In this document: positions 322 to 33,590 of the stretch, piece after piece
Position numbering within the stretch: position 1 is the first letter of the stretch
Layout: each line of letters opens with the position of its first letter
Source: a virus
Direction: 5' to 3' (one strand)
Length of the DNA stretch: 33,590 nucleotides
Virus record (IMG/VR): IMGVR_UViG_3300029932_000006
Made by a program: the position numbers and the translations under genes
The notes under the pieces: model-generated
The model's input: the letters and a program-made list of their open reading frames with translations, nothing else
Database searches by the model: none
Told to the model about the DNA's origin: nothing

Positions 322-428
322 TGGATGAGGAATTTAATCATCAAGATGAGAGTGACGAATGGCCCAAGAAAGATCACCGCTAAAAGGCAAATAGCCCATA
401 AAGTGGCGAAAAACTCTCCGAGCTTCAT
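318..428 (-). CDS. Micro-ORF, 36-aa hydrophobic membrane peptide (MKLGEFFATLWAICLLAVIFLGPFVTLILMIKFLIQ)
   Basis: Not in the track because it is under 60 aa. It fills the gap between mazG and the 124..321 ORF exactly. ATGA overlaps occur at both ends (428/425 and 321/318). It has one clear transmembrane stretch. Confidence 0.5.
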   Translation of the reverse strand: MKLGEFFATLWAICLLAVIFLGPFVTLILMIKFLIQ

Positions 429-727
429 GTTTCCCTCACAAAGATGCCTTCTTTGGTCAGCGTTCCCTTGCGGTCTTTGATCTCCTCATAAGCCCGTTTG
501 AGACAGGCCACGAGGTCTAAACCGGCCAGGTCAGCCGCCAGGATCAGAGTCACCAGGACATCTCCAAAGCCATCAATCTGGGCCTCTCGGTTTCCTTTTA
601 GAGTGGCCCCAACAAGCTCTCCGAGTTCCTCTACGCACTTGAGGAGTTGCTTCTCTGTGGTGGAGTTAGGGATAATCTGACGGGCCTCAGCCCAGCGCAG
701 GATTTCAATTTCTAGATTGCGGTACAT
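425..727 (-). CDS. mazG: MazG-like nucleoside triphosphate pyrophosphohydrolase
   Basis: 100 aa. The motif KCVEELGELVGATLKGNREAQIDGFGDVLVTLILAA is the typical all-alpha MazG EExxE/D metal-binding helix pattern of small phage MazG proteins. Confidence 0.85.
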   Translation of the reverse strand: MYRNLEIEILRWAEARQIIPNSTTEKQLLKCVEELGELVGATLKGNREAQIDGFGDVLVTLILAADLAGLDLVACLKRAYEEIKDRKGTLTKEGIFVRET

Positions 728-948
728 AGTTTCTTTCGATGCTTCAATAATTCTTTCTTACCCATCTCGCTCAGTTTGGGGATGCAGACTGGCTTTCCTG
801 CATGGGTGACTGTCTTGCGATCACAGATCAACTTCCTGCGAACGAGTGACCAGTAGGTACACCAACTGCCAGGCCGGTCGTTGAACAACTTAAATCCCCA
901 TCCCTTCTCAAACATCGCGAGCATCTGTGCTTGCTGATGAGAGATCAC
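712..948 (-). CDS. Hypothetical protein (78 aa)
   Basis: Track ORF. The GTG start at 948 overlaps the upstream stop as GTGA. No recognisable motif. Confidence 0.55.
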   Translation of the reverse strand: MISHQQAQMLAMFEKGWGFKLFNDRPGSWCTYWSLVRRKLICDRKTVTHAGKPVCIPKLSEMGKKELLKHRKKLCTAI

Positions 949-1412
949 AGCCGATCCCCCAGCCTGCGACCGATGTTCGCCAGTTGGTCTTTGATCTCAT
1001 TGATGGACTTGCGGCCCATGTTGGGAATCCGCAAAAGCTCCCGCTCCGTTCGGCTGCAGAGATCATCAATGGTGTAGATTTCCTCAAACCTCAGGCAGTT
1101 TGATGCCCTCAGTGGAAGATCAAGGATTTGCCAGGCAGTGGCGTTCTTGGCAATCAGCGATTCAAGAGTTGAGCGTGTTTCGTTTCGCTTCAACTCCTCC
1201 TGCCGGGACTTCTCATCTTCTTGTAATGCTTGCTCCAGGCTTCGATAGTGGCTGATCGCCTGCTGCGCCAGCACTTGAGGTTTCCACGTTCCGTTTGCCT
1301 CTAAGAGTCTCAGATAAATCTCGAAAATCTTGTCGTTCACTTCGATCTCCCGGCCCACTTGGGTTCTTTCTTCTCTTGGAACACGGGCCTCCCCTCGCTT
1401 GGAGGAGTCCAT
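945..1412 (-). CDS. RNA polymerase alpha-subunit C-terminal domain (alpha-CTD)-like protein with a coiled-coil N-terminal half
   Basis: The C-terminal 60 aa are ILDLPLRASNCLRFEEIYTIDDLCSRTERELLRIPNMGRKSINEIKDQLANIGRRLGDRL. These align along their full length with the RpoA alpha-CTD helix-hairpin-helix (E. coli [60 protein letters not shown]). I chose ATG 1412, which has GGAG 9-10 nt upstream. The track's longer ORF to 1550 would overlap the upstream gene. Confidence 0.8.
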   Translation of the reverse strand: MDSSKRGEARVPREERTQVGREIEVNDKIFEIYLRLLEANGTWKPQVLAQQAISHYRSLEQALQEDEKSRQEELKRNETRSTLESLIAKNATAWQILDLPLRASNCLRFEEIYTIDDLCSRTERELLRIPNMGRKSINEIKDQLANIGRRLGDRL

Positions 1413-1500
1413 CCATACTTTCTCCAGGTGGCCTGAACATCGGCCCCCGAGGTCCATTTGAAATCTGGATGCCCCACCGGGATGCGCGGCATCGTCTTTT

Positions 1501-1935
1501 TCACTTGATGTTCCATCTTGCCTCCAACTCTCTAATAAGAGACACCACATCCATTGCCCAGGCTGTTTTCCCAGTCATATACTTGGTGTGCCGAGCCGCG
1601 ATTTGGAGGATCTCCTTTTCCTCCAGCTTTTTCGTTTTCACTGGCTCTGGAATAATCTCCTTGGCAGCGGCCCACACGATTCGGGACCGCCCAGAGGCTC
1701 CGTTCCTCCTTAGCCCTGAATCAAAGATGTACCCCTTCCTCCGCAGAGGAGCGATCCTTGGGGTAATTGACTGCAGAGACCTGTTCAGCGCAAAAGCGAT
1801 CTCTTCTGCTGTCGAAGGCTTGAACCTCAAGAGTTCATACACCCTCGCCTCTAAGTGGCTCACATCTAGCTTTGCGGCTTCCTTAGCGGTGTCAGGGTCA
1901 TCTTTACGGTGTGCTCCGTGCATCATTGGCTCCAT
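1501..1935 (-). CDS. Winged-helix (MarR-like) DNA-binding protein
   Basis: 144 aa. VYELLRFKPSTAEEIAFALNRSLQSITPRIAPLRRKGYIFDSG...GRSRIVW shows an HTH followed by a beta-wing. The start could instead be ATG 1926 or 1923. Confidence 0.7.
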   Translation of the reverse strand: MEPMMHGAHRKDDPDTAKEAAKLDVSHLEARVYELLRFKPSTAEEIAFALNRSLQSITPRIAPLRRKGYIFDSGLRRNGASGRSRIVWAAAKEIIPEPVKTKKLEEKEILQIAARHTKYMTGKTAWAMDVVSLIRELEARWNIK

Positions 1936-1962: not shown

Positions 1963-2193
1963 TTAGAACTCAATGTCTCGGGGATTTCCCTTCTTCGGCT
2001 CTTCCCGAGGCGCGTTCATGTAGGCCCATCCATCCCATCCGCCCTCTTTGAAGGGTGAGCAGTCCAGCTTCAGCATAGGACCGTTTTTCGTATCAATGAC
2101 TGACCCGATGCGCAGGTAACGCTTCTTTTCTTCGCCGTCTTTGTTGGTGTAGGTGCCAACGATGGCGGTGACTTCGTACAAAACTTTGCTCAT
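1963..2193 (-). CDS. Hypothetical small protein (76 aa). It may be an OB-fold or ssDNA-binding partner of the recombination module, which is speculative.
   Basis: Track ORF, ATGA-coupled to the exonuclease stop. It is beta-rich (YEVTAIVGTYTNKDGEEKKRYLRIGSVIDTKNGPMLKLD). The function is suggested only by its position next to exo and erf. Confidence 0.55.
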   Translation of the reverse strand: MSKVLYEVTAIVGTYTNKDGEEKKRYLRIGSVIDTKNGPMLKLDCSPFKEGGWDGWAYMNAPREEPKKGNPRDIEF

Positions 2194-2792
2194 ATTGCTT
2201 CCAGTTTTTTCACTTTCTCATCGACTTCAGCCAGGAACTTGATGATCTCGGCCTCCATCTCCCCAATCAGCTTCTCATCTCGCTCCACGCGAATGATTAA
2301 AAGCTGAAGTCTTTGTGGCATCCTCGGGTCGAAACACACGAAGTCGCACCACTTTTTATCTGTGCAGCGCATCTGAAGTTGCATCTGCTTCAGATACTTG
2401 TCAGGGATCTTTCGGTTGAGCTGCATCTCAATCATGGTTGCCGTTTCAGGACACTTAATCTCGATGAGTCCCTCACCAACGATCCCGTCTGGGCTGGCCC
2501 CACACATCTCAATAGAGGGGTGAGGAATAAACCCCACCTCCTCCACGAGATTTCCTGTTTGGGCCTCGTATGCTGCTCTGGCGTTGGCTTCTTGTTCTAC
2601 GCCCCACTCCATCGCTGCGTTGGAGTAGGTCTTTGCTGGCTGACCAGTCATCCTTTCCACGACCAGTTGTGCTTGGTAGTTCTCCCGATCCGCTGAGTAT
2701 CCGGTCTTGGTCTTGGCCATGACCTTGTAAACAGAGGATGCGGTGACCTTACCGGCTCGTTGAGCGAACCATTCTGGTGTGCGTTGTTCCAT
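2190..2792 (-). CDS. YqaJ-like viral recombinase exonuclease (lambda Exo-type PD-(D/E)XK)
   Basis: 200 aa. It has the N-terminal RTPEWFAQRAGKVTASS motif, then GASPDG and LIEIKCP, which match the YqaJ family catalytic signature. Confidence 0.9.
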   Translation of the reverse strand: MEQRTPEWFAQRAGKVTASSVYKVMAKTKTGYSADRENYQAQLVVERMTGQPAKTYSNAAMEWGVEQEANARAAYEAQTGNLVEEVGFIPHPSIEMCGASPDGIVGEGLIEIKCPETATMIEMQLNRKIPDKYLKQMQLQMRCTDKKWCDFVCFDPRMPQRLQLLIIRVERDEKLIGEMEAEIIKFLAEVDEKVKKLEAI

Positions 2793-3007
2793 TACGCTTC
2801 ATCCTCGTCTTTTCCAGCAACATCAATTTGCAACTCTGATCCAAAAATCAATGCTATTTCGTCAAATCCAACTTTGGCATCGCGCAAAGTTTTAAGAATC
2901 TCGTTGCATCTATCGGCCATCGGGGTTATTTCTTCCCACAACTTACGACCACGCTCTACGGTTTCGTTGTATTCACGCTCAAGCTCACGAGCTTCTTTGA
3001 TTTTCAC
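2792..3007 (-). CDS. Hypothetical acidic coiled-coil protein (71 aa)
   Basis: Track ORF packed tightly between erf and exo with overlapping start and stop codons. Confidence 0.55.
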   Translation of the reverse strand: MKIKEARELEREYNETVERGRKLWEEITPMADRCNEILKTLRDAKVGFDEIALIFGSELQIDVAGKDEDEA

Positions 3008-3618
3008 TTTGCGGCTCCTTTCATTGCTGCGTCTTTCAGGCTCTTCTGGTTACGAGTCCAGAACCTTGCCTTAGCTGCAGACACTGGGATCTTCTTGAAC
3101 TCTGCCTCTAGAACAGAAAGGCCTTCCATCGCTGCGCCACGAAGGTTGTCCAGGTGCTCATCTTCAAACGCCTGGTCTTCGCTTGGCAGGACTTCGTGCG
3201 TATGGTTCTCGGTGTCGTTATCGCCTTCTGTTGGGATTGCGAAGGCCTGGAACGCTGCGTACTTATATGCCGCACTCATGGCCTTGTTTGTGGCCTTGTC
3301 GCCTGAGTCCATCGCCTCACCAAAGGTTTTGATGGTGTGCTTCGACCCGTCCTCAGATGAGACCAGATCGAACTCCATCTCTACAGTGATGAAGAACAGA
3401 TTCCCACCGCTGTTTGACTTGCGCTCTACACACTGCCGTGAGAGCACTCGAGGGAGGATACACAGACCATGCTTCGCCAGAAGCGGAGAGATGGTGTTGT
3501 AGACATCATCAATGCCTCGGAAGTTGTATCCGTTGCCCTGAGTGTTTCTTCGGCTCTTGGTGATGCCGATGGAGGCCAGTTCAGCTTGGACTGCGTTGAT
3601 TGCTTTGTAGACGATCAT
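3004..3618 (-). CDS. erf: ERF-family single-strand annealing protein
   Basis: 204 aa. YNFRGIDDVYNTISPLLAKHGL and GEAMDSGDKATNKAMSAAYKYAAFQAFAIPTEG are hallmark ERF superfamily blocks. Confidence 0.9.
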   Translation of the reverse strand: MIVYKAINAVQAELASIGITKSRRNTQGNGYNFRGIDDVYNTISPLLAKHGLCILPRVLSRQCVERKSNSGGNLFFITVEMEFDLVSSEDGSKHTIKTFGEAMDSGDKATNKAMSAAYKYAAFQAFAIPTEGDNDTENHTHEVLPSEDQAFEDEHLDNLRGAAMEGLSVLEAEFKKIPVSAAKARFWTRNQKSLKDAAMKGAAK

Positions 3619-6525: not shown

Positions 6526-6848
6526 ATGCCAATGCTGCGGTAGATTTTATTATTCGCAACGCAGGGGATTACTCCAAAGCCAAAGCGCAAAGGGTTTACT
6601 TAGAAGAATTCAGAAAGACCAAGAAAGCCTTACTGATGAAAGACGCAATGGCGAAATACGAAGCTGCCAATGCTCAAGAGCGAGAGGCTTACGCTCACCC
6701 GGAGTACCAAGAACTCCTCAAAGGCCTGCAGGAGGCCATAGAGATTGAGGAAGAACTGAAGTGGAAGCTGGAGGCCGCAAGGATGAGGGTTGACATCTGG
6801 AGGTCAGAGGAAGCCTCCGCACGAATGCAAGTAAGGGCCACAGAATGA
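6522..6848 (+). CDS. Hypothetical coiled-coil protein (108 aa)
   Basis: ATG 6522 is ATGA-coupled to the rusA stop. The protein is helical and rich in K, E and A. Confidence 0.6.
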   Translation: MNANAAVDFIIRNAGDYSKAKAQRVYLEEFRKTKKALLMKDAMAKYEAANAQEREAYAHPEYQELLKGLQEAIEIEEELKWKLEAARMRVDIWRSEEASARMQVRATE

Positions 6849-7579
6849 TCCACTATCACGGGACTCCAGTAGGAGGAAAGAGAGAAGATTCGGCTAGGTT
6901 TCTTCCAGGAAGACACGCACTTGTGTCTTTTGCTTACCCAGAGGACATCTCAATCGTGGCTGATGTCTGTCAGTCTTTTGTGCTGGATAACGGGGCGTTT
7001 ACCACTTGGAAGCAGGGCAAGCCTTTAGATGTGGATGGGTATATCAAGTGGGTCCACGAGTGGTATCGCCATCCAGGGTTTGATTGGGCACTGATTCCTG
7101 ATGTGATTGACGGGTCAGACCGTGAAAATGACTACTTGGTGGAGAACTGGCCGAAGGCACTTCCTGGGGTTCCTGTGTGGCATATGCACGAGCCAACAGT
7201 AAGACTTACATGGCTGGCGCGTAAGTTCCGCACCGTGGCTTTGGGTTCTTCTGGCGAGTTTGCCTCTGTCGGCACTCAGCAATGGTGGGAGCGTATGGCC
7301 CGAGCCATGAAAGCCATCTGTGACGATCAGGGAAGGCCGATGTGCAAGCTCCACGGACTAAGGATGCTTGACCCCAACATCTTTACAAAACTTCCACTCT
7401 CAAGCGCGGACTCCACGAACGCAGCAGTCAATTCTGGGAGTCTTTCAAGATTCGGGATGTATCTCCCGCCAACGGCAGGCCAAAGGGCCACAGTGATCGC
7501 AGACCGGATCGAGACTTACAACTCAAGTCCAGTCTTCATTCAGCAGCAACAGGAGGAATTGTGCTTATCTTCGCAGTGA
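6845..7579 (+). CDS. dpdA: DpdA-like / tRNA-guanine-transglycosylase-like DNA 7-deazaguanine transglycosylase (putative)
   Basis: 244 aa. FVLDNGAF resembles the TGT catalytic-Asp motif (LTDSGGFQ). There is a later C-x9-C-KLHGL segment. It is ATGA-coupled upstream and overlaps the downstream YhhQ-like transporter gene. The assignment rests on memory of the family plus this context. Confidence 0.6.
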   Translation: MIHYHGTPVGGKREDSARFLPGRHALVSFAYPEDISIVADVCQSFVLDNGAFTTWKQGKPLDVDGYIKWVHEWYRHPGFDWALIPDVIDGSDRENDYLVENWPKALPGVPVWHMHEPTVRLTWLARKFRTVALGSSGEFASVGTQQWWERMARAMKAICDDQGRPMCKLHGLRMLDPNIFTKLPLSSADSTNAAVNSGSLSRFGMYLPPTAGQRATVIADRIETYNSSPVFIQQQQEELCLSSQ

Positions 7580-8064
7580 TCGTTTATGCGCTGGCAATGA
7601 CCATCGCCAACTTATCAATCGCAGAGTTTGGGCCAAAAGTAAGCCCAATCAATGCGTTTTTCCTCATCGGCTTAGACCTGGCATTGCGGGATTGGCTGCA
7701 GGTCAAACTCAAAACCAGAGAAATGGGCCTGTTGATTCTTGCGTCTGGGGGAATTACTTATCTACTAAATCCCTCAGCCGATATGATCGCCATTGCCTCG
7801 GCGATAGCTTTCACGGGGGCAGCGGTGGTGGATTGGGCCGTTTTCACTAAGGTCACCGGCTCGTGGTTCAAACGCGCAAACACATCCAATGTTGCTGGTG
7901 CTGCGGTTGATTCGCTTCTGTTCCCAACCATTGCGTTTGGTTCTCTTATGCCGCACATTGTCCTGATGCAGTTCGTTGCAAAGGTCTGCGGCGGTTATGT
8001 CTGGGCACTCCTTCTGAATCATGTATCAAAAGCAAACTTACATCCGAAGCCCGAAGCTCCTTAA
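7561..8064 (+). CDS. yhhQ: YhhQ / Vut_1-family queuosine-precursor (preQ0/preQ1) transporter
   Basis: 167 aa and polytopic. AAVVDWAVFTKV...RANTSNVAGAAVDSLLFPTIAF parallels E. coli YhhQ LDVHVFNRL...APTASTLFGNVSDTLAFFFIAF. The GTG start follows AGGAGGAA (7551-7558). Confidence 0.75.
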   Translation: MLIFAVIVYALAMTIANLSIAEFGPKVSPINAFFLIGLDLALRDWLQVKLKTREMGLLILASGGITYLLNPSADMIAIASAIAFTGAAVVDWAVFTKVTGSWFKRANTSNVAGAAVDSLLFPTIAFGSLMPHIVLMQFVAKVCGGYVWALLLNHVSKANLHPKPEAP

Positions 8065-9588: not shown

Positions 9589-10845
9589 TTGAAACCTCAA
9601 ATCGAAACGCTGGACATTAACTCGCTCATCCCATACGCGAGGAACGCCAGAACACACTCAGAAGCCCAGATCGCCCAGATCGCGGGTTCCATCAAGGAAT
9701 TCGGCTTCACCAATCCCGTCCTGATCGACAAGGACAACGGGATCATCGCTGGTCATGGCCGAGTAGCTGCAGCGAGAAAGCTAAACCTTACAGAAGTACC
9801 CTGCATCCGTCTAGAGCATCTCTCAGAGACTCAGCGCAAGGCTTACATCCTGGCAGACAACAGGATAGCTCTTAACTCCGGGTGGGAGGCCGACCTCTTA
9901 TCCACAGAGCTTGAGGAGCTGAAAGACTTAGGGGTCAGCCTCGAGAGCCTGGGTTTTGACTCAGACGAGATTGACGCGCTCCTGAACAAGATCGAACCCA
10001 CCGCGGGACTTACGGACGAGGACGAAGCCCCAGAGGTTCAAGAGCAGGCTGTTACTAAGCCTGGGGATATTTGGGTGATGGGCAACCATCGGCTTATGTG
10101 CGGGGACTCCACAAGCATTGACGCTGTGGATAAGCTGATGCCAGAGACCGCGGATATGGCGTTTACTGATCCGCCTTACCTGATGGACTTTACCGGAGGG
10201 ATTCATGCGGATGGATCAAAGTCCTTTAACGCCAAGCATGGGCGCATTGCTAACGACAAAATGAGCGAGCAGGAAGGAGACGACTTTCTAGACGCCATCA
10301 ATACGATCATTGCCTCTAAAGTTCGCGGTGCTTTTTACATAACCTTTTATCGACTAGGAATTGATCGGTACTACGCATCAATGCAACGGACGGGTCTTCA
10401 GTGCCGGTCGCTGATTATTTGGGATAAAGGAAACCACACCCTAAGCAATAGCGACTACATGAGCATGTATGAGCCAATGTTTTATGGCTGGGTAAAGGAT
10501 CACACCTTTTATGGCGGAAACAATGGCATGGACATTTGGCGCATTGAACGAACAAAAAAGAACGATTTGCATCCCACCATGAAGCCGGTGGCCTTAGTAG
10601 AAAAGGCGCTTACTGATGGAAGTAAAGCAAAAGAGGTGGTCCTTGATCTTTTTGGAGGATCAGGGTCAACCCTAATCGCTGCAGAGAAGAACGGACGAGT
10701 AAGCCGCCTGATGGAGCTAGACCCAAAGTATTGCGATGTGATCGTAAAGAGATGGCAGCAGTTCACCGGCAAGAAAGCCATACTGGAGCAAACGGGCCAA
10801 ACTTACGAAGAACTTACACAACCTTCGGGATTACAAAATGAGTAA
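9589..10845 (+). CDS. ParB-like nuclease domain fused to an N6/N4 DNA methyltransferase (beta-class)
   Basis: 418 aa with a TTG start after AAGGAA. The N-terminus has a ParB/Srx block (PYARNARTH...FGFTNPVLID...IIAGHGRVAAARKL). DPPY (motif IV) precedes FGGSGST (motif I). Confidence 0.9.
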   Translation: MKPQIETLDINSLIPYARNARTHSEAQIAQIAGSIKEFGFTNPVLIDKDNGIIAGHGRVAAARKLNLTEVPCIRLEHLSETQRKAYILADNRIALNSGWEADLLSTELEELKDLGVSLESLGFDSDEIDALLNKIEPTAGLTDEDEAPEVQEQAVTKPGDIWVMGNHRLMCGDSTSIDAVDKLMPETADMAFTDPPYLMDFTGGIHADGSKSFNAKHGRIANDKMSEQEGDDFLDAINTIIASKVRGAFYITFYRLGIDRYYASMQRTGLQCRSLIIWDKGNHTLSNSDYMSMYEPMFYGWVKDHTFYGGNNGMDIWRIERTKKNDLHPTMKPVALVEKALTDGSKAKEVVLDLFGGSGSTLIAAEKNGRVSRLMELDPKYCDVIVKRWQQFTGKKAILEQTGQTYEELTQPSGLQNE

Positions 10846-33361: not shown

Positions 33362-33590
33362 TGAAGGTCTTACTTAGGTTGAGTTTGGCCTGATTGTTTT
33401 CGTGCTTGAGATGAAGATGGAAGATTGAGGCGACTTTCTTCTTCTTACGCGCTCTGCGGTTGTATTCCGGGTGTCCTAACTTTGGAGGCCTTTTAGCGTC
33501 TGGCAGGTTCCCAGCGGCCCACACAGCCCTTGGATAGAGCCTTCCACCGTCTTCATCTCTGCGATAGGACTGGATGTATATCACGCCTGG
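33318..33590 (-). CDS. Winged-helix protein, 3' part of the junction-spanning CDS (see 1..218)
   Basis: Track ORF 33318..33584 is the in-window tail (IYIQSYRRDEDGGRLYPRAVWAAG...). It is in the same frame as 1..218 after the 77-bp duplicate is collapsed. Confidence 0.6.
   Translation of the reverse strand, partial: PGVIYIQSYRRDEDGGRLYPRAVWAAGNLPDAKRPPKLGHPEYNRRARKKKKVASIFHLHLKHENNQAKLNLSKTFNASAVHMGQRQGTV
33514..33590. repeat. Second copy of the 77-bp terminal duplication
   Basis: Identical to 1..77. Confidence 0.9.

Follow-up and report, generated by a model that had tools for sequence, protein, structure and literature searches.

A phage gene whose product ends in a recognisable piece of bacterial RNA polymerase raises the question of what that piece does once it is detached from the enzyme. 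The gene considered here lies at positions 945..1340 on the minus strand of the viral record IMGVR_UViG_3300029932_000006 in IMG/VR, a stretch of 33,590 nucleotides (nt) that is referred to throughout, at its full length, as the window. It encodes a protein of 131 amino acids (aa), and the C-terminal ~62 residues of that protein are a true C-terminal domain of the RNA polymerase alpha subunit (alpha-CTD). In bacteria, the alpha-CTD serves RNA polymerase as a flexible arm that engages UP elements and most class I activators. Some interference with promoter recognition in the host, or its redirection, is the probable role of the phage protein. It is quite possible, if still short of probable on the sequence comparisons presented here, that the phage protein competes with the polymerase alpha-CTD at A/T-rich UP-type DNA.

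The identity of the domain is established by several searches. It occupies residues 70-131 (948..1133, minus strand), with helices at 77-85, 91-95, 99-103 and 110-122 and two helix-hairpin-helix (HhH) motifs. The Pfam profile RNA_pol_A_CTD (PF03118) matches residues 72-121 of the 131-aa protein with E=5.2e-18 and a score of 65 bits, for a gathering cutoff of 23.8 bits, and phmmer against the PDB retrieves RpoA chains at E~1e-14, the last ~60 residues aligning without gaps and ending exactly at the equivalent of Escherichia coli L318. Over E. coli alpha 258-318, 33/61 positions (54%) are identical; identity is 56-59% to the CTDs of betaproteobacterial RpoA and 50-59% to RpoA CTDs overall. An AlphaFold2 model built with 114 family sequences has a mean predicted local distance difference test score (pLDDT) of 88.9, rising above 90 within the alpha-CTD domain, and Foldseek places this model on 1lb2_B and 3n4m_B, both of them alpha-CTDs in complex with CAP and DNA, with a root-mean-square deviation (rmsd) of 0.9-1.1 Å over 62-65 columns and 50-56% identity. 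Pfam also gives a weak match to HHH_5 (18 bits versus 65 for PF03118), and no significant match to another HhH family was seen in PDB or Foldseek searches of the protein.

The residues that touch DNA are also in place. The mapping was set by the PDB phmmer alignment, in which the end of the query is chain residue 318; R78, N81, C82, G109, K111 and S112 of the phage protein, counted over its 131 aa, correspond to R265, N268, C269, G296, K298 and S299, so that the residues of the '265 determinant' are identical at 6/6 positions. Meanwhile, the sigma-contact positions D258, D259 and E261 hold Q, I and D, and V287 is replaced by R. The original prediction, made from the letters alone, had described a stand-alone phage homologue of the alpha-CTD with an ungapped C-terminal 60 aa about half identical to E. 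coli and with R265, N268, C269 and the G296-K298-S299 loop present, and it had named a PF03118 profile search and a superposition on alpha-CTD structures as checks; the profile match, the PDB alignment and the ~1 Å structural fit bear out all of this.

The protein is not a complete alpha subunit. No alpha N-terminal domain (alpha-NTD) was found in it by Pfam or by the NCBIfam rpoA profiles, as had been anticipated. The rpoA equivalogs score 41-73 bits, far below their cutoffs of 228-523, and align through their C-terminal part only (model positions ~200-316); the best has 73 bits where 302 are required, and TIGR02027 has 61.9 where 227.8 are required. True rpoA loci show the context rpsD-rpoA-rplQ, whereas the gene described here has no such operon around it and sits amid small early genes of a phage genome. 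Because the alpha-NTD, which is the assembly domain, is missing, the protein cannot replace RpoA in the core enzyme.

How much precedes the alpha-CTD depends on where translation begins. The minus-strand open frame spans 1550 to 945, and the 72 nt 5' of the start adopted here are open in two frames, which explains why some gene callers give products of 155, 165, 201 and 211 aa. The gene had been predicted at 945-1412, from an ATG at 1412, but the ORF, its sequence and the JGI calls place the start at GTG 1340..1338 and the TGA stop at 947..945. Support for GTG 1340 as the true start comes from a GGAG motif 6 nt 5' of it, from a GTGA overlap (1337-1340) shared with the TGA stop of an upstream 59-aa gene, and from the close homologues, which are 131-132 aa long and have their first residue at the equivalent position; in the homologue L169 that start is joined, as ATGA, to an upstream gene of another kind. 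The substitution pattern agrees: between the window and the relative L167 the 59-aa frame is identical at 55/59 positions while the overlapping frame of the supposed extension differs at 9/25 codons, and the substitutions within 1341-1412 are conservative in the former and non-conservative in the latter. Finally, JGI calls the 59-aa and 131-aa genes both on the window contig and on its sister contig L088, and the JGI product for 945..1340 (P0122, 131 aa) is the same as the one given here. The 72 nt at 1341..1412 (minus strand), wrongly taken to code for an N-terminus, thus belong in another frame to the 59-aa gene. That gene (1337..1516, minus strand) is called by JGI and is translationally coupled to the alpha-CTD gene through the overlap of stop and start; its product has no match in Pfam, PHROGs, NCBIfam or PADLOC.

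A start at 1340 leaves a non-CTD part of ~70 aa, where an unrelated coiled-coil region of ~95 aa had been proposed; the lack of relationship stands, the length does not, and a coiled coil is plausible only. Residues 1-69 (1134..1340, minus strand) form a helical hairpin in the AlphaFold2 model, with helices at 2-15 and 21-65 and an invariant Tyr32. In the models helix 1 is amphipathic, as is helix 2 over its first half, and residues ~40-58 are a charged, E/K/R-rich helical stretch that resembles a stiff spacer. A profile of this N-domain, run against 1.84 billion representatives, gave only 30 matches, 45-154 aa long, among which was the window's own subfamily (P0005, E=4.7e-14). In most of the 22 new N-domain sequences retrieved an alpha-CTD comes next, a few others being truncated or diverging beyond the N-domain; in none of the 22 is the N-domain joined to another recognised domain. 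Judged by its distribution among sequences, the N-domain is private to this phage family of N-hairpin plus alpha-CTD proteins, and it gives no functional clue.

An origin of the N-terminal part from the end of the alpha-NTD and the linker was considered and rejected. HMMER, tblastn and NCBIfam alignments do extend back to RpoA ~200 through an 'E-x-N-G-T' resemblance, but this motif is not conserved among the homologues and the N-part alone matches no RpoA in the PDB. In a profile-profile comparison (hhalign) with RpoA 190-255 the family gave P=0.27; the subfamily gave P=0.011, but by a non-collinear 15-residue match. Since neither the search with the lone N-part nor the profile-profile comparison lent support to RpoA, the N-part stands as unrelated to it.

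The window protein belongs to a sizeable phage family. Defined by the N-domain, the family comprises ~30 clusters at 50% identity, and relatives of the alpha-CTD occur on at least 149 IMG/VR viral contigs. Its shared layout, a two-helix N-domain with the invariant Tyr leading directly into an alpha-CTD within 110-135 aa, is that of the window protein. A word-indexed search returned five close clusters of the window protein, and a search with broader alignment returned a long list of 114-132-aa proteins of the same layout, many of them labelled 'DNA-directed RNA polymerase alpha subunit' by JGI. In BFVD there are UniProt entries of 111-135 aa named 'RNA polymerase, alpha subunit, C-terminal [uncultured Caudovirales phage]', as well as proteins from Rhodococcus phage Finch and Mycobacterium phage Mithril that contain an alpha-CTD. 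The uniqueness implied by the original prediction therefore does not survive, the family being large and already auto-annotated in UniProt and by JGI, and the protein varies a familiar module at the domain level, without being unique or of a categorically new kind. PHROGs holds no family for the alpha-CTD protein, and PADLOC gave no significant defence match, its sole hit being a 17-bit local match to PglW over the HhH-like segment.

Candidates outside this family were also followed. Of 18 tblastn matches in GenBank phage records, all but the last few were opened and nearly all of these proved to be full-length or fragmentary host rpoA under a wrong label; no close phage genomes were found in GenBank. 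Many of the records concerned (H1-H17, for example CAKLQH020000003.1, AFYI01000003.1 and OR851339.1) carry an ordinary, full-length host rpoA, being contigs or fragments from bacteria that were entered as phage. In a scan of cellular genome contigs every opened match was a true rpoA, mostly from Betaproteobacteria, and no prophage copies were identified. Two cellular proteins, P0110 (172 aa, WP_410052228.1, Bradyrhizobium) and P0116 (141 aa), each consist of two tandem alpha-CTD repeats without an N-terminal domain.

Other viral proteins join the alpha-CTD to different partners. On two IMG/VR viral contigs (L102:5533-6240, 235 aa, and L110:5557-6183, 208 aa) a Sigma70_r4 domain is fused to a C-terminal alpha-CTD, with 34.9 and 33.7 bits for Sigma70_r4 (cutoff 24.1) and 72 and 69 bits for the alpha-CTD. 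In such a fusion of sigma-70 region 4 with an alpha-CTD, a single small protein carries both the module by which the holoenzyme recognises the -35 element and the one by which it recognises UP elements. In L090 (190 aa) a helix-turn-helix-like N-terminus precedes the alpha-CTD, and L091, L108, L114 and L130 have yet other N-terminal parts.

Both halves of the window protein are under strong purifying selection. The ratio of non-synonymous to synonymous substitution rates (dN/dS) is 0.08-0.11 overall in comparisons with L167 and L169, with 0.03-0.13 for the CTD and 0.06-0.10 for the N-domain. These values bear on the suggestion that the gene is no more than a functionless captured fragment of host rpoA, for which the closeness of the CTD to betaproteobacterial RpoA, at 56-59% identity, might speak. 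A dN/dS of ~0.1, translational coupling inside an operon, an N-domain that does not come from rpoA, and spread over ~30 clusters and at least 149 viral contigs all contradict it, and the selection and family data leave this explanation effectively refuted and its likelihood negligible.

What has been selected can be read from the surfaces of the domain. Counted over 114 family sequences, the DNA-contact positions are kept: R265 in 114/114, C269 in 110/114, N294 in 114/114, G296 in 114/114, K298 (as K or R) in 114/114 and S299 in 112/114. The contact patch for sigma region 4 is not kept, D259 being variable and E261 being G, N or E, and the CRP-contact patch is mostly replaced, with Q, N, D or R at V287, R at E288 in 85/114, R or K at G315 in 100/114 and Q or E at R317 in 93/114. 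Because the DNA-contact face is kept while the faces that contact sigma and CRP are not, DNA binding appears to be the common selected property. The fusions with sigma-70 region 4 on other viral contigs likewise suggest that phage alpha-CTDs are tied to promoter DNA.

On this basis the following model of competition at UP-type DNA can be put forward. The phage protein would bind A/T-rich DNA in the minor groove through the '265 determinant'. Its N-domain would self-associate into a dimer or higher oligomer, so that at least two alpha-CTDs would be displayed on helical spacers in the manner of the polymerase's alpha2 dimer, and this would raise the otherwise weak affinity of a single alpha-CTD. 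Self-association is proposed because a two-helix amphipathic hairpin is, from the models, unlikely to be stable as a lone fold, and the protein is thus probably oligomeric. Since it has neither the assembly domain nor the acidic 261 patch for sigma region 4, its occupancy of UP-type DNA would be unproductive; polymerase alpha-CTDs would be outcompeted, UP-dependent transcription (of rRNA, for example) and alpha-CTD-dependent host transcription would fall, and phage promoters would be favoured.

The original prediction had proposed a decoy or competitor, and its DNA-binding half is the one that the family-wide conservation favours. The other half, developed here as a rival reading, would have the free alpha-CTD bind not DNA but partners that dock on the polymerase alpha-CTD and so uncouple them from RNA polymerase (RNAP), the candidate targets being class I/II activators, the NusA acidic repeat AR2, Spx-like factors and alpha-CTD-targeting enzymes or sensors. 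The window's subfamily offers some encouragement for such a protein decoy, since it keeps 8/9 residues of the '287 determinant' (T285, E286, E288, L289, L290, G315, R317 and L318) and is the most RpoA-like branch of the family, with 56% identity to betaproteobacterial RpoA CTDs versus a median of 44% for the remaining family. NusA-AR2 binds the basic face of the alpha-CTD, and retention of that face would suit a decoy as well as a DNA-binding protein. Against this, V287, a key CRP contact, is R in the window protein; in most of the family V287, E288, G315 and R317 are replaced, often with reversal of charge, and D259 and E261 are not kept. The rest of the family shares the N-domain and presumably the function, yet its CRP-contact surface has changed, and no partner gene co-occurs over 56 loci. 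Taken across the sequences compared, these replacements disfavour titration of CRP-type class I activators as a family-wide function, and a protein decoy is unlikely overall.

Several observations weigh against competition at UP-type DNA itself. N268, a DNA-contact residue in E. coli, varies across the family as H, N, R or K. A fold search with the N-domain alone returned nothing significant in the PDB (best E=3), which lends no help to oligomerisation. Neither a constant partner gene nor a link to transcription genes emerged from clustering of the co-directional neighbours at 56 non-redundant viral loci, and in one sublineage (L003, L004 and L005) the gene is packed between erf and yqaJ so closely that start and stop codons overlap. 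In the literature, no paper was found on stand-alone phage alpha-CTD proteins or their function. A weak point in favour of the model is that UP-element-like A/T tracts (AAAWWTWTTTTNNNAAA, <=3 mismatches) are scarce in the window, with 1 match versus 7.9 +/- 3.5 expected and at least one match in 100/100 dinucleotide shuffles, a deficit of only ~2 standard deviations (SD) that may be explained by coding constraints, which the shuffles ignore. The scarcity is weakly consistent with a host-directed target.

The linkage to erf and yqaJ points towards a recombination or replication accessory, in which a two-HhH, or (HhH)2, DNA-binding module would aid Erf, YqaJ or replication proteins and have no role in transcription. 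Among the 56 loci, ERF stands at -1 whenever it is found (6/56), YqaJ is at +1 in 6/56 and within six co-directional genes in 10/56, and RusA is within six genes in 10/56; the window gene itself shares an operon with YqaJ and lies three genes downstream of it, and the weak HHH_5 match fits a generic module. These contexts are not independent, however, because the phages are related (they have the same 681-aa portal), the tight linkage is confined to the one sublineage, and the commonest neighbours are small proteins without known function, an 82-aa one near the gene in 26/56 loci and a 108-aa one in 18/56. Furthermore, a domain 50-59% identical to RpoA CTDs carries RpoA-specific residues well beyond a generic HhH, and these would be needless in a generic DNA clamp, which is therefore disfavoured. 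An accessory role of this kind is accordingly improbable.

A further possibility is that the protein is an auxiliary, polymerase-tethered alpha-CTD, an extra DNA-binding arm anchored through its N-domain to the host's RNAP or to a phage regulator, which recruits the polymerase to phage promoters and so makes the protein an activator. The conservation of the N-domain, with purifying selection acting on it, would suit a protein-protein interface, and the fusions of sigma-70 region 4 with an alpha-CTD could work likewise, sigma region 4 being a module that binds the beta flap. Against this, UP-like tracts are scarce in the phage genome, no similarity between the N-domain and any RNAP-binding module was detected, and the 261 patch for cooperation with sigma region 4 is not kept, so that a tethered activator is very improbable. 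Scans of the phage genome for promoter and terminator consensus sequences gave matches at chance level only. Neither an RNA polymerase nor a sigma factor was noticed among the window genes, so the phage must use the polymerase of its host, the enzyme whose alpha-CTDs would be outcompeted if the protein occupies UP-type DNA.

The setting of the gene is that of a tailed phage. The first and last 77 bases of the window are identical (1-77 and 33514-33590) and the sister contig L088 crosses this junction at 99.9-100% identity, which together indicate a complete genome of ~33.5 kb, circularly closed or permuted. It encodes a P22-type portal, with thousands of metagenomic relatives on contigs no longer than 36 kb, a terminase and a major head protein, together with a DUF1376/O-like replication protein and RusA; no integrase was noticed. 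The alpha-CTD gene lies, as predicted, in an early leftward operon that diverges from cro-like and replication genes, and an early or recombination-region context on tailed-phage contigs is found in the window, in L088, in L001-L007 and at the 56 non-redundant IMG/VR loci.

The operon runs from three small genes through Erf, a 71-aa ORF, YqaJ, a 76-aa ORF, a 144-aa ORF, the 59-aa gene and the alpha-CTD gene to the possible 78-aa ORF and MazG. Its recombination module (2190..3618, minus strand) comprises an Erf-like annealing protein (3004..3618), the 71-aa ORF and a YqaJ-type exonuclease (2190..2792), the assignments resting on phrog_155 (E=8e-36) and phrog_149 (E=7.5e-49) and on Pfam ERF and YqaJ on the sister contig. 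Directly 3' of YqaJ, proteins of 76-77 aa (window 1963-2193, minus strand; L004:7693-7926) end in acidic-hydrophobic tails, …PRDIEF and …DDSEIPF, that resemble the SSB C-terminal tip; they have no family matches. The adjoining 'winged-helix regulators' of the original prediction reduce to the single upstream 144-aa ORF (1501..1935, minus strand), which matches phrog_1123 (E=1.3e-13) and has weak, sub-threshold similarity of TrmB/MarR type (Pfam TrmB E=3.3e-4, 20.9 bits, below the gathering cutoff of 25.6).

On the other side, a 78-aa ORF (712..948, minus strand) has a GTG start that overlaps the alpha-CTD stop as GTGA (945-948), but is uncertain as a gene: it is uncalled by JGI on the sister contig, is missing from the relative L167 and has no Pfam, PHROGs or NCBIfam match. 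A GTGA overlap, in which a GTG start and the TGA of the preceding gene share two bases, is thus present at both junctions of the alpha-CTD gene, 1337-1340 and 945-948. Downstream in the same operon is a MazG-like nucleotide pyrophosphohydrolase (425..727, minus strand; phrog_1992 E=1.2e-27, Pfam PRA-PH 22.5 bits).

Elsewhere in the window, at 6845-8064 (plus strand), a TGT/DpdA-like protein (phrog_887 'queuine tRNA-ribosyltransferase', E=7e-67) is followed directly by a Vut_1/YhhQ-type queuosine-precursor transporter, assigned by Pfam on the sister contig, an adjacency suggestive of phage DNA modified with a 7-deazaguanine derivative. At 9589-10845 (plus strand) a ParB-like N-terminal domain is joined to an N6/N4 DNA methyltransferase (phrog_498 E=3.5e-138; Pfam ParB_N and N6_N4_Mtase on the sister contig). 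Scans of the genome for tRNAs and with Rfam gave nothing relevant.

Host takeover through the alpha-CTD has precedents. The T4 proteins Alt and ModA ADP-ribosylate R265 of alpha (PMC2988021), and gp67 of Staphylococcus aureus phage G1 blocks the binding of the alpha-CTD to UP elements (PMC3694059). A broader proposal, and one that must be called doubtful at present, is that phages use free, self-associating copies of the alpha-CTD as mimics, set against RNAP alpha-CTDs at UP elements and in some subfamilies for alpha-CTD-binding factors, and so shut down rRNA and activator-dependent host transcription. If true, mimicry would add to Alt/ModA and gp67 a third way, this one non-enzymatic, of reaching their target, and the fusions of sigma region 4 with an alpha-CTD would represent the same ploy in a more elaborate form. 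A widespread family of detached phage alpha-CTDs would then point to a different strategy, mimicry of a polymerase domain, and the 131-aa protein would be a compact natural tool for probing or suppressing proteobacterial transcription that depends on UP elements and the alpha-CTD. Literature searches returned no characterised example, in agreement with the original prediction, and no tested function was found for the auto-annotated phage alpha-CTD proteins; because the family is abundant in metagenomic phages and mislabelled 'RNA polymerase alpha subunit', a tested function would correct many annotations.

Of the known systems, the nearest is the bacterial RpoA CTD itself (residues ~250-329, PF03118), which has the same fold (rmsd ~1 Å), 54% identity in E. 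coli, and the same minor-groove contacts R265, N268, C269, G296, K298 and S299, the phage protein ending at the L318 equivalent. Unlike RpoA, the phage protein is phage-encoded, has no alpha-NTD or linker but a family-specific helical hairpin ahead of the CTD, and carries Q, I and D in place of D258, D259 and E261 and R in place of V287. Within the phage world, the auto-annotated entries A0A6J5MNY7, A0A6J7WD60, A0A6J5M7I6 and others are likewise small proteins that combine an N-terminal helical part with PF03118, and the phage proteins that JGI names 'DNA-directed RNA polymerase alpha subunit' are 115-124 aa long with the same general layout. The auto-annotated group of 115-132 aa has the same N-domain as the window protein, invariant Tyr included, and its genes likewise lie in early operons. 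The window protein differs from that group in belonging to a small subfamily of five clusters at 90% identity, in which helix 2 is longer by 13-14 residues and the CTD is nearer to cellular RpoA than in the other auto-annotated phage proteins.

More distant comparisons are with generic (HhH)2 modules and with the phage inhibitors of the alpha-CTD. The (HhH)2 modules of RuvA domain II, ComEA and the RadA/Rad51 N-terminal domain bind the DNA backbone and minor groove, and they share with the phage alpha-CTD its two HhH motifs and, for some relatives, a recombination context; unlike them, the phage sequence is specifically an alpha-CTD, at 65 bits for PF03118 versus 18 for HHH_5. With T4 Alt/ModA and G1 gp67 there is no kinship of sequence or structure, and searches of the alpha-CTD protein in Pfam, PHROGs, NCBIfam and the PDB gave no ADP-ribosyltransferase or gp67 homology. 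Alt/ModA and gp67 modify or sterically block the polymerase's own alpha-CTD, whereas the phage protein would be a domain mimic acting on DNA or on partner proteins. If it does compete for UP-type DNA, the likeness to them, hypothetical and functional as it is, would lie in a common target and a common outcome, namely less UP-dependent host transcription.

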